Below, one piece after another: positions 1 through 5,086 of a DNA stretch of 64,000 nt (its first letter is position 1; the number at the start of each line of letters is the position of its first letter). This DNA comes from Dictyostelium discoideum (lineage: Eukaryota). Made by a program: the position numbers and the translations under genes. The notes below the pieces were generated by a model. The model saw only the letters and a list, made by a program, of their open reading frames with translations, made no database searches and was not told the origin of the DNA. The DNA lies in assembly GCA_000004695.1 (NCBI GenBank), contig CM000153.2, positions 128,001-192,000 of the forward strand. The letters run 5' to 3'.

Positions 1-3000
1 ATTTTAGGGATTCTTTTGAATTTGGTAGTAATAATAATAATAATAATAATAATAATAATAATAATAATAATAATAATAATAATAATAATAATAATAATAA
101 TAATAATAATAATAATAATAATAATAATAATAATAATGAAGAAAAGTCAAATAACGAGACTGAAAAGACTTTAGAAAGTAATGGAGATACTACTACTACT
201 ACTACTACTAATAATAATAATAATAATAATAATAATAATAATAATAATAATAATAATAATAATAATAATAATAATAATAATAATAATAATAATAATAATA
301 ATAATAATAATACCAATAGTAGTAATGATATATATATGAATTCACCATCATCAACATTATCATCACCAGGTAATGCAGGCAATAATTTACCAATTGGATG
401 CACCAAACCAAATGTACCAAAATCACCATATAGTCCATCACCACCACATCTATATAAATCAAATTCAACCTCTTATTTAAAATCTTCTTTTTTTAGTGGA
501 AATGGTAGTAGTAGTAGTAGTAGTAGTACTACCACCACCAATATTAATAGTAATAATTCAAATACAAATACTTATAGTACAAGTACAAATGTAAAGAAAA
601 ATAATAGCAATACAAATAGTAATACAAATAACAATACAAATGGCAATACAAATACTAATAGTAATAGTAATAAAAAAAATATAAATTCAAATAGTTCAGA
701 TAATATAATAATTAATGATACAGCAGATATAATGAATAGAAGAAGGGATAGATTTAAATCATTTTCATGGACAATTGGAGAATCTAATTCAAATAGTAAA
801 TTTAGTGAACTATCAATGATATCATCAAAATGTAAAAGTATAAAGAGTGAATTTACACCATTGTTTGAAACGTTGACAGTTTTTGATGAATCTGATAAAA
901 TCAGGCATAGTCTCATACAGAATCATTATAAGACATTATTGATTCAAAATCCAGCATCACCAAATCGTACATTATTAACAAACTTACTCCAAAGAAGAGG
1001 TCATAATTTAACAACTTGTCCAATAGATATTAATCATGTATTACAATTATTACAAAAAGAATCTTTCTCTTTATTCATTTTTGATCCAAATGAATCAATT
1101 ATTAATAATACTTCAAATAGTATAAGTAGTAATGAACCAATATCATTATCTTCATCTTCATCTTATTATAATAATAATAATAGCAATAACAATTCTGTAA
1201 ATAATAATAATAATAATAATAGTGGTAATTCAACAAATAATAATAGTCCATCAAGTCATACACCAAATTCACCAATGATATTCCAACCAATTGTTTCAAA
1301 TATTTGTAGTAATAGTGGTGGTAGTGGTAATAATAGTCCTCATCATATTGATAATAATAATAATAGTAATCAGCAACAACAACAACAACAACAACAACAA
1401 CAACAACAACAACAACACCAACACCAACAACAACAACAACAATCATCATCAACAACAGCAACAACCAACAATTCTTGTACATTAAATCAACAACAACAAC
1501 AACAACAACAACAACAACAACAACAACAACAACAACAACAACAACAACAACAATCACAACCAACAACACCAACACAATCAACACAATCACCAACAACATC
1601 AATTAGTTTTAGTAAAAAAAAGAATTTAACGATAAATACAAGTTTTAAAACATCACCAATGTCATCACCAAAATCATTTAATAAACCATCACAATCACCA
1701 CAAAATATATTTAATAATTTCTCAAATACATATAATCCAAACAATATTGAATTTTGTAAAATATTGAAATCAAAGTTAACAGAATTTGAAACTGTGATAG
1801 TATTGACCGAGAGTACTGATCCATCTGAATTTTGTCAATATATTGATGCGGGTGCAACTGATTATATACCTCAACCAATCTCACCAATACTTTTAGATCT
1901 TCGTTTAACCACTTGTCAAAAGTTGGTTAATAATAATCTACATTTAAAGAAGGCTGAATCATTAAAGGATGCAACTCGTAAGATGGTAACTTGTATTGAA
2001 AATTCACCAGACTGTGTCGAAATTTGGGATCCAAGTGGACATATTCAATATTTGAATCTAGCTTTCTCTGAGATGACTGGTTTTGCTCGTTGGGAATTAT
2101 TAGGTAAAGAATTTTCAAATCTAATAGATAATACTGAAATCATTCCAAATATGTGGGCAACACTAACCGATAAGAAAACTTGGAATGGTTTCATTAGAAC
2201 TCGTCATAATAATAATACTTTAATCTATTTCGAGGCTTCAATCTCACCGGTATTAGATCAATTTCAACAAATTCTCTATTATAATTGTACAAAAAGAGAT
2301 GTAACTCAAAAAAGAATAGATGAAGAATCAAAAACTTTAGAACAAAATAAAATCATTGAAAAGTCACGTTTACGTCTATCAATGATGAGTCATGATATTA
2401 GAACTCCAATGTCAAATATCATTGGTATGGCTGATCTATTATTAGATACTTCTCTATCTCAACATCAACATCATTATCTTGAAATTATTAAAAATTCTTC
2501 AAATACTTTATTAACAATAATTAATGATATTTTAGATATTTCAAAGGTAATATATAATATATAATTAAATATATTTTTAATCTAATATTAATTTTTTATT
2601 ATTTTTTTTTTTTTTTTTATACTATTCAGATTGAAGCAGGTAAATTAGATATTGATTATGAAAGTTTTGATTTTAATGCAACAGTATCACAAGTTGTAGA
2701 ATCAATGGCACAAAGAGTACAATCTAAAGGATTAGAATTATTAAGTTATGTTGATCCAAAGATACCAAATATATTGATTGGACCAAGTAGTAGATTGAAT
2801 CAAATTTTAACTAATCTTTTGGGAAATTCTTTGAAATTCACTGATAAAGGTGAGATTTCAATTTGTTGTCTATTGAATGATGAAACTGATAGTGAATATG
2901 AAATAAAGGTTGATGTAAGGGATACTGGTATTGGTATAAAGAAAGAAGCTTTACCATTACTCTTTAAAGCTTTCACTCAAGCTGAAGGTACAATCACTAG

Positions 3001-5086
3001 ACAATATGGTGGTTCAGGTTTAGGTTTAGCAATTTGTAAAGAGTTGGTTCATTTGGCTTTCAATGGTGAAATCTCTGTTGAAAGTCAGTATGGTCATGGT
3101 AGTACTTTTACTTGTATTTTAAAGTTTAAAAAGTTTTTACCATCTGATTCTCAAAATTTATTACCTGCAAGTTCACCATTACAACAACAACAGCAACAGC
3201 AACAACATCAACAACAAACACAATTTCATCAACATCAACAACAAACACAATTTCATCAACATCAACAACAACAATTACAACATCAACAACATCAACAACA
3301 TCAACAATTACAACAACAACAGCAACAACAACAACAATTACAACAACAATTACAACAACATCAACAACACCAATTACAACAACGTCAACACCATCAACAA
3401 CAATTACAACAACAACAACATCATCATCATCAACAAGTTCATTTACAACAGCAACAACAACACGAACATGACGCTCAACATAATCAACATATACAACAAC
3501 AACAACAGCAGCAGCAACAACAACAACAACAACAGCAGCAACATGAACATAATAATAATGGCCACCATAATAGCCATGGCCATAATCATCATGGTAGTCA
3601 TCATAATCATAATCATCAACATAATAATAATAATAATAATATTACAATTAATAAATTACAACATCAAGAAAAGAAACAAAAATCAAATGAACAACAATTA
3701 GAATCAATAACTGAAAATAGTTTTTCACCAATAGTTGAACCAATGGTTATTAGTGATCCTGATACACCTGAGGCATTAAATATATCACAATCACCATCAC
3801 CACAATCGATTCATAATGGTACTACAATCAATCAACAACCAACATCACCATTGAATACACTCGGTTCGAAATTTGATTTCTCTGGTGCAAAAATGTTATT
3901 CATTGAAAGAAATGATACAAGTAGAGGTAATTTATTTAAACAATTATTGGCTTGGAATATTCAATTAGAATTGGTTGAAGATGGTGAAAGTGGTTTTCGA
4001 AAATGGAAACAATCTATTGAATCAAATTCACCTTATTCTATAATTATTATGGATTTAAATACTCCTGGTGTTGATGGTGCTTCATTACCAATGAGAATAA
4101 AAAAAGAATTAGAATTAATGCAACAACATCTACAACAACAACAAGAACAAGAACAACAACAGCAACAAGAACAACAACAATCCGAGTTACAAAAACAACC
4201 AGATGTTGAAAATAAAAATTCATCTCAAAATAATGACAATAATAATAATAATAATAAATCAAATAGTAGTGGTGGTAATCAATGTATATATCGTTCACCA
4301 ATTATTATGTTAATGCCAATTCAATTTTTAAATTCACAATTAGAAGATAATTTAAAAGATGCTGGTGTTTGTGCTATACTTTCAAAACCAATTAGAATGA
4401 GCCAATTGGCTGATGTTTTCATGATGTATTTAGGTCCAAATAGTGAACACAATAATAATAATAATTATAATAACAATAATGGTAATGGCTATTTGAATGG
4501 TGGAGGCGGTGGTGGTGGTAGTGTTAATGGAACTGGAAATGGAACATTACAAGTTGGAATGAGTAATGATGGTGGTAATGGATGTGGTGTAGTCTCTTTT
4601 TGGAATAAACAGAGAAGAGCATCCGCTGAAGAACAAGAACAAGATCCATCGAAATTATTGGGTAAAGTTTTAGTTGTAGATGATAATCATATCAATATTC
4701 AAATCCTTTCTAAAATGCTTCAAACTGTTGGTTGTGAAGTTGATTCAGTGCTAAGTGGTGCCGATGCTTTGGCAAAAATTAATCAATCATCTGGTGACTC
4801 TTATGATGCAATATTCCTTGATATTCAAATGCCCGACATGGATGGATTCCAAGTATCTAGAAAAATTAGAGAAAGAGAGAAAAAATTCTCATTACCAAGA
4901 GTAGCCATCATTGCAACAACAGCAAACGTTTTCAAAGAAGATCAATTAAAATGTTTTGATGCTGGTATGGATGATTTCATTTCAAAACCAATTAAAAGAG
5001 CTGAAATTAAAGAAATCATTAAAAAATATGGTAAAAATGGTAATCATCAAAGTGGTAGTGCTTATAGTCTTTATAAATTAAGTTAA
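1..5086 (+). CDS. Hybrid sensor histidine kinase of the Dictyostelium dhk family. The CDS is 5'-partial: the reading frame is open from nt 3 through (AAT)n/poly-Asn into the track ORF at 336. Exons are join(<1..2546,2630..5086), with intron 2547..2629 (GTAATA...TTCAG, phase 0).
   Basis: Exon 1 carries a PAS-like segment ([45 protein letters not shown]) and the HisKA H-box [18 protein letters not shown]. Exon 2 carries the HATPase_c N, G1 and G2 boxes ([19 protein letters not shown]; DTGIGI; [11 protein letters not shown]). It then has a degenerate receiver ([11 protein letters not shown]...[13 protein letters not shown]) and a canonical C-terminal receiver ([15 protein letters not shown]...[13 protein letters not shown]...FISKPIK). 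Long poly-Gln and poly-His tracts are encoded by CAA and CAT runs. Splicing across the 83-nt intron keeps the reading frame, since both track ORFs (336.. and 2705..) are in the same frame. Confidence 0.85.

Follow-up and report, generated by a model that had tools for sequence, protein, structure and literature searches.

The gene at the left edge of a 64,000-nucleotide (nt) stretch of Dictyostelium discoideum DNA (GenBank assembly GCA_000004695.1, contig CM000153.2, positions 128,001 to 192,000 of the forward strand; hereafter the window) is very probably dhkL, encoding a 1,709-amino-acid (aa) soluble hybrid histidine kinase with a proposed role as an input to RdeA and RegA that holds development back. 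The DhkL entry (DDB0191389) in Table S2 of the published kinome (Goldberg et al. 2006, PMC1420674) starts with MEGSKRDII and reads MEGSKRDIIENSNNGNNKGVVIEELGETYYTNSKPSTSADCKY before continuing into residues that match the window. In the portion of the entry available for comparison, which extends to residue 399, all 356 overlapping residues are identical to the window translation, in which the two poly-Asn runs are as long as they are in the entry; this indicates that the gene is dhkL and that the window lacks 43 of its codons. The original prediction, made from the sequence alone, described a truncated hybrid histidine kinase whose paralogue could not be decided on that basis. The paralogue can in fact be decided as DhkL, as opposed to DokA or another Dhk protein, by the match to DDB0191389, whereas the main structural points of that prediction are supported; the other amendments concern size, which is 1,709 aa, and the presence of a third, N-terminal pseudo-receiver.

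A different paralogue (DokA, DhkC or DhkI) could be entertained on the grounds of similar size and PAS-containing architecture, but the probability of this is close to nil: the N-terminus of DokA in the available part of Table S2 (MSSPHIELHSQRTLSP...) is unrelated, in contrast to the uninterrupted identity with DhkL. DokA, DhkK and DhkM all begin differently from DhkL in the same portion of the table. DokA, with a length of 1,671 aa, is ruled out by Table S2. The gene is already named, annotated and knocked out, and is neither a new family member nor a variant.

Gene structure and the window edge

The gene occupies nt 1–5086 of the window on the plus strand as two exons, with 1,666 residues encoded within the window. 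The features that define the gene model are as follows.

1–2546, plus strand: dhkL exon 1, the 5' part of which is cut off by the window edge; open frame, with 356/356 identity to DDB0191389
29–330, plus strand: two poly-Asn runs encoded by (AAT)n tracts, with an interruption at about nt 136–207; Tandem Repeats Finder (TRF; period 3, 99.7 copies) and translation
2547–2629, plus strand: the single intron of the part within the window, 83 nt, GT..AG (GTAATA...TTCAG), phase 0, with an in-frame stop at 2562–2564
2630–5086, plus strand: dhkL exon 2, with the final TAA at 5084–5086; open reading frame (ORF) list and spliced translation

The stretch is very AT-rich, and its coding frames are packed with (AAT)n and (CAA)n tracts in a manner characteristic of Dictyostelium. 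Frame 3 of the plus strand contains no stop between nt 3 and the one at 2562–2564, whereas frame 1 closes within 57 codons and frame 2 within 1. Nucleotides 1–2 (AT) fit the last two bases of the Tyr-43 codon, with nt 3 marking the start of Phe-44 in the 1,709-aa numbering. Translation, together with early closure of the other two frames, upholds the earlier claim that the frame is open from nt 3 and through the (AAT)n/poly-Asn region. Truncation by the window edge, claimed likewise, is supported by the N-terminus of published DhkL, in which 43 residues precede the one encoded from nt 3, and by the 1,709-residue product annotated at this locus on contig CM142510.1 of assembly GCA_054883475.1, where the DNA is identical to window nt 9–5086. 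That locus, which was reached via a neighbouring single-exon gene, starts at window nt 9, and the 1,709-residue gene runs off it. The window cuts off the first 43 dhkL codons (127 nt, provided that there is no further intron), the identity of which is taken from the published N-terminus as opposed to upstream DNA. The resultant full length, 43 plus 1,666 residues, agrees with the annotated product. The previous size estimate of at least 1,560 aa was loose: the full protein has 1,709 aa, 1,666 of its codons lie in the window, and the count from Met-336 is 1,555 aa.

The ORF list starts the gene at the ATG at nt 336 because the lister omits ORFs that run off the window and takes the first ATG after a stop; the second long ORF that it lists ends at 5086. 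Initiation of translation at Met-336 or another internal Met, giving a product of about 1,555 aa, would require the upstream frame to be open simply by chance of the (AAT)n repeats. Nucleotides 29–330 are indeed mostly AAT repeat, which is inherently open in that frame, and the region 5' of the basic motif described below is unconserved, with orthologues having short and different N-termini, all of which, along with the start chosen by the lister, would suit an internal start. However, the non-repeat parts (nt 3–28 and approximately 136–207) are open as well and have an exon-like composition as judged by eye (not computed), neither of the other frames stays open, both closing immediately, and the published model and an independent annotation both begin 43 codons upstream of the window. 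An internal start is accordingly considered very unlikely. Antisense ORFs across dhkL (1102–1602, for example) overlie Asn/Gln repeat tracts and were discarded as repeat artefacts.

Excision of nt 2547–2629, which have a GC content of 6% compared with 25% and 31% in the flanking exons, fuses the two frames without a stop into 1,666 codons followed by the TAA at 5084–5086, whereas the unspliced frame ends at the stop at 2562–2564. The spliced junction (...INDILDISK/, the slash marking the exon boundary) aligns without gaps to INDILDFSKIEAGKMDLE of a bacterial homologue (40% identity over 377 columns). Additionally, exactly this codon boundary, DISK/IEAGK, is interrupted by a 73-nt intron in the Cavenderia fasciculata orthologue (TCAAAG/GTAAAA...TTTTAG/ATTGAAGCAGGT), a position that was found by fitting the exon structure of the Cavenderia gene to its annotated protein. 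Frame fusion, gap-free alignment and the shared Cavenderia position thus all bear out the single 83-nt intron originally predicted between the H-box and ATPase exons, and the splice, like the stop, is placed correctly.

Kinase core and receiver domains

The domain order of DhkL is a low-complexity N-terminus, a basic motif, a receiver-like domain (REC1), PAS, HisKA, HATPase_c, a Gln/His linker, REC2, a Gly/Asn linker and REC3. Positions of Pfam matches are given in window-protein numbering, to which 43 is added for the full-length protein; single residues such as His-840 are numbered as in the full-length protein. The corresponding features in the window are as follows.

738–785, plus strand: basic motif, aa 289–304, containing RRRDRFKSF; motif scan and conservation
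927–1922, plus strand: REC1, predicted (beta-alpha)5 fold, split between beta3 and alpha3 by an Asn/Gln/Ser-rich insert of about 214 residues (approximately nt 1092–1733)
1983–2315, plus strand: PAS sensor domain, aa 661–771 of the window protein; PAS_9 and PAS Pfam matches
2376–2641, plus strand: HisKA (DHp), spanning the intron, with H-box SHDIRTP and phospho-acceptor His-840 at nt 2391–2393; Pfam
2786–3130, plus strand: HATPase_c, with N box, G1 box DTGIGI, F box FKAFTQ and G2 box GGSGLGL; Pfam and motif location
3181–3641, plus strand: Gln/His-rich linker from (CAA/CAT)n; TRF and translation
3887–4432, plus strand: REC2, degenerate, with a Gln/Glu/Asn-rich insert; sub-cut-off Response_reg match and residue alignment
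4667–5020, plus strand: REC3, true C-terminal receiver; Pfam, CheY alignment and relatives in the PDB

The PAS domain is matched by PAS_9 (43.7 bits, E 3.6e-11, aa 669–769; cut-off 27 bits), PAS (37.9 bits; cut-off 22.6) and PAS_4 (32.3 bits; cut-off 23.1). As read from the translation, the Cys motif typical of LOV domains (NCRFLQ) is not found in it, the corresponding stretch being GKEFSNLID, without Cys. HisKA scores 66.2 bits (E 2.7e-18, aa 792–852) against a cut-off of 26.9 bits, and HATPase_c scores 90 bits (E 1.7e-25, aa 901–1015). All of the kinase motifs, namely His-840 and the N, G1, F and G2 boxes, are intact, and the hybrid kinase is, on the basis of these motifs, complete and apparently competent, with a cytosolic PAS sensor. 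The highest mean Kyte-Doolittle value over 19 residues is 1.0, on which basis a soluble protein with no transmembrane helix is predicted. The kinome survey is consistent with this, in that only DhkA, B, E, K and M are listed there with transmembrane helices (PMC1420674). HisKA, HATPase_c and REC domains were all detected by Pfam, and the sequence of PAS, HisKA, HATPase_c, degenerate receiver and true receiver originally described was recovered by a combination of Pfam and alignment of active-site residues. The poly-Gln and poly-His linkers reported between the catalytic core and the receiver are likewise present, in the Gln/His-rich segment at 3181–3641; a further poly-Gln tract lies at nt 1374–1602.

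REC3 gives the strongest receiver match, with a Response_reg score of 115.8 bits (E 1.5e-33) for the whole protein, the best stretch of which spans 1528–1645, accompanied by a second, weaker stretch. Asp-1575/Asp-1576, Asp-1622 (nt 4820–4822), Thr-1655 and Lys-1677 align with CheY residues 12/13, 57, 87 and 109, such that every active-site residue is present and the description of this domain as a true receiver is sound. Its best relatives in the PDB are receivers of histidine kinases and of Sln1, with no Dictyostelium relative of REC3 found in that database. REC2, conversely, scores 24.5–25.7 bits with Response_reg, under the cut-off of 30.2 bits, and has Glu-1317/Arg-1318 in place of the Asp-Asp pair, such that the second acidic residue is lost, and Met in place of Thr, while retaining Asp-1366 (nt 4052–4054) and Lys-1477. 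With these replacements and a sub-cut-off score, its earlier designation as degenerate is fair. Against Pfam PF24896 (Receiver_CRE1), REC2 scores 12 bits (E 0.25), which is below the 27-bit cut-off, whereas REC2 of the Cavenderia orthologue reaches that cut-off with 28.3 bits.

Orthologues were recovered in two steps. A full-length query returned five matches and was swamped by low-complexity words; one of the matches was the Cavenderia orthologue which, when used as the query, recovered two Acytostelium sequences, one from Heterostelium and one from a transcriptome. The resultant five orthologues include those of C. fasciculata (P0121, 1,142 aa), Acytostelium subglobosum (P0126 and P0128) and Heterostelium album (P0127). 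The REC2 Asp and Lys are retained in all five.

An additional receiver-like domain, REC1, is present upstream of PAS and was missed in the original prediction. With its insert removed, REC1 gives a Response_reg score of 28.2 bits (E 2.2e-6). A two-sequence profile of REC1 with its Cavenderia counterpart matched almost exclusively receivers in the PDB, with weak E values (PhoP, 0.0016) albeit with alignments over the full domain. An AlphaFold2 model of window nt 909–1925, based on six sequences, has the (beta-alpha)5 order, with predicted local distance difference test (pLDDT) values of mostly 65–88 in the ordered parts; the beta3-alpha3 insert is disordered, and poly-Gln runs are drawn as low-confidence helices. 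The top 50 Foldseek matches to this model in the PDB are all receivers, with root mean square deviations of 1.1–2.7 Å for alignments covering only the C-terminal half of the domain, a restriction that stems from the split. At the key positions of REC1, the Asp-Asp pair is replaced by Asn-Pro and the Lys by Gln-667, the Thr is kept, and the acceptor position is occupied by Asp-404. The acceptor-position Asp is found in D. discoideum only, with Asn or Glu in the five orthologues, and the Lys position is occupied by Gln or His in the orthologues. Judged by these residues, REC1 is a pseudo-receiver that lacks the catalytic residues. The domain is present in orthologues from three other dictyostelid genera, with the insert located in the same beta3-alpha3 loop in every case but varying in length and composition, which suggests that this loop tolerates repeat expansion. 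No mention of the REC1 pseudo-receiver was found in the DhkL literature examined.

Proposed function and competing explanations

The precocious development of dhkL-null cells gives indirect support for DhkL as an input kinase of RdeA and RegA. These cells are normal for 8 h and then form fingers and slugs early, beginning sporulation 2 h ahead of time and producing threefold more spores at 18 h (Parikh et al. 2010, PMC2873529). The same authors interpreted DhkL as a negative regulator upstream of protein kinase A (PKA), possibly acting via RegA or AcrA. For the histidine kinases of Dictyostelium, the kinome survey names transfer from RdeA to RegA as the sole output known (PMC1420674). In the mechanism proposed here, a cytosolic cue read by PAS would set the rate of His-840 autophosphorylation, with phosphate then passing within DhkL from His-840 to Asp-1622, and from there to RdeA and to the receiver of the cyclic AMP (cAMP) phosphodiesterase RegA. 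Active RegA would lower cAMP and PKA activity, thereby holding development back, whereas the two degenerate receivers are probably regulatory or docking modules as opposed to relay stations. We infer the autophosphorylation, the transfer from His-840 to Asp-1622 and the transfer to RdeA. If DhkL does feed RdeA and RegA, then its loss should speed development, as is seen in the null strain.

Histidine kinases can work in both directions, being bifunctional, and DhkA and DokA, when bound to ligand, have been described as working in the phosphatase direction. DhkL could feasibly, then, be mainly a phosphatase and draw phosphate away from RdeA and RegA, as has been reported for certain other receptor kinases of Dictyostelium, as opposed to a donor; REC2 and REC3 would then be two potential sinks. 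The loss of such a drain would, however, be expected to raise RegA activity and slow development, whereas the null strain develops and sporulates early (PMC2873529), and all of the kinase motifs are intact; this explanation is regarded as improbable. Signalling by DhkL to something besides RegA, such as the receiver of the adenylyl cyclase AcrA or one of five other receiver-domain proteins, is rather unlikely. AcrA was named as an alternative by Parikh et al. (PMC2873529) and the five further receiver proteins are noted in the kinome survey, but the route from RdeA to RegA is the only output demonstrated so far (PMC1420674), and rapid development resembles the loss of RegA pathway activity (PMC2873529).

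DhkL as a kinase that feeds RdeA and RegA is preferred, although several points count against this reading or against the identification on which it is built. Residues 400–1709 of the published protein are matched by total length only, and an exact-sequence look-up of the 1,709-aa reconstruction returned no match in the protein collection, which may reflect either the coverage of the collection or a difference in the 43 upstream codons. No DhkL biochemistry was found in the searched literature. Moreover, retention of the Asp and Lys of REC2 in every orthologue means that this domain may not be inert.

The basic motif, which four of the five orthologues share, is the sole RxRxx[S/T] site in DhkL. 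An RxRxxS sequence fits the consensus for AGC kinases of the PKB type. In Table S4 of Nichols et al. (2019, PMC6397043), dhkL is listed under GO:0007165 among the 'UP' phosphoproteins, which rise after stimulation, and a phosphopeptide for the basic motif was not returned from the portions of the phosphopeptide tables of that study that were searched. The listing lends support to the notion that REC1, located immediately after RRRDRFKSF, could couple chemoattractant-triggered phosphorylation to kinase output, which would link cAMP-receptor signalling to RegA. REC2, in turn, could be a second phospho-acceptor or a pseudo-receiver that binds a small molecule. That the basic site with REC1, and the Asp- and Lys-retaining REC2, are real conserved regulatory inputs as opposed to decayed relics is a speculative proposal that we consider doubtful.

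Strain HM1696, designated 'dhkl-' in Nichols et al. (2019, PMC6397043), is a DhkI mutant and not a DhkL mutant; confusion between capital I and lower-case l in text searches could mislead look-ups of DhkL function.

The main value of the analysis is in annotation: the left-edge gene is dhkL, the listed ATG at nt 336 is not its start, and a gene caller limited to this window would report a truncated product. REC1 and the Asp- and Lys-keeping REC2 may assist work on Dictyostelium two-component signalling, while leaving the general picture of the family unchanged.

Neighbouring genes and related kinases

A spacer separates dhkL from the next gene.

5087–5294, no strand assigned: A-rich sequence of 10% GC, comprising the 3' flank of dhkL and the intergenic spacer up to a convergent amine-oxidase gene

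The convergent gene, at approximately 5295–7115 on the minus strand, encodes a flavin amine oxidase (PF01593, E 5e-37) with at least one intron, and is annotated with 554 aa in GCA_054883475.1. A (TTG)22 tract at 5388–5453 encodes a poly-Gln run in this protein, the hydrophobic C-terminal tail of which resembles a tail anchor. The single-exon gene at 10075–11277 on the plus strand encodes 400 aa starting MGTCGSKPSK, a candidate N-myristoylation signal, and has a GlfB_C Pfam match in the annotated assembly. Other genes are called at 13195–13779, 15727–17892 and 20973–21203 of the CM142510.1 locus, for which the offset to the window is approximately +8 to +94; called genes in the window include those for a 194-aa NifU_N protein and for an 812-aa helicase of the MCM family that has a WHD_MCM8 match. 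Window nt 9–21297 align with CM142510.1 positions 5,402,273–5,423,475, in reverse orientation, with 99.49% identity over 21.3 kb (23 mismatches and 13 gaps). The coding region of dhkL is free of differences, and all of the variation is thus confined to the other 16 kb. The window, over its full 64 kb, contains no tRNA genes.

Compared with the published D. discoideum DhkL (Goldberg et al. 2006; Parikh et al. 2010), the gene described here is from the same organism and has the same total length of 1,709 aa, with no difference where the two are comparable. The dictyostelid orthologues are collinear with DhkL through the basic motif, REC1, PAS, HisKA, HATPase_c, REC2 and REC3, with the Cavenderia protein being 62% identical over PAS and the kinase core and 47% identical over REC3. 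Like DhkL, all of them lack the REC1 Lys, although at the REC1 acceptor position they differ from the Asp of DhkL. They are some 570–640 residues shorter because most of the Asn/Gln/His tracts are absent. The Cavenderia gene (6001–9666 of the GL883008.1 locus) has three introns of 73, 82 and 82 nt, only the first of which is shared with D. discoideum, and a comparison of local synteny revealed no shared gene order between its surroundings and the neighbours of dhkL in the window. Within D. discoideum, DhkC is also a PAS-containing hybrid kinase, loss of which speeds development and which is thought to feed phosphate to RegA. It is, however, a different gene that encodes a smaller protein said to respond to ammonia.

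A homology search with the 451-aa PAS-kinase core returned only bacterial proteins of less than 790 aa, and none from Dictyostelium, with the lengths of the matches apparently limited by the query length. Bacterial hybrid kinases from metagenomes (P0040, P0037 and P0058) have the same REC-PAS-HisKA-HATPase_c-REC order, including the N-terminal receiver, and are 33–40% identical over PAS and the kinase core, with 96–99% of the query matched; P0040 also has two C-terminal receivers, as does DhkL. They differ in being 680–780 aa in length, in having receivers that score as full Response_reg domains, and in being free of low-complexity inserts. The occurrence of this order in bacterial proteins indicates that the architecture of DhkL is an ordinary one for hybrid kinases. 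The plant cytokinin receptor AHK4/CRE1 likewise has a degenerate receiver between the kinase and the functional receiver but, in contrast to that protein, DhkL is a soluble PAS kinase that has neither a CHASE domain nor membrane spans, and its REC2 falls short of the Receiver_CRE1 cut-off.

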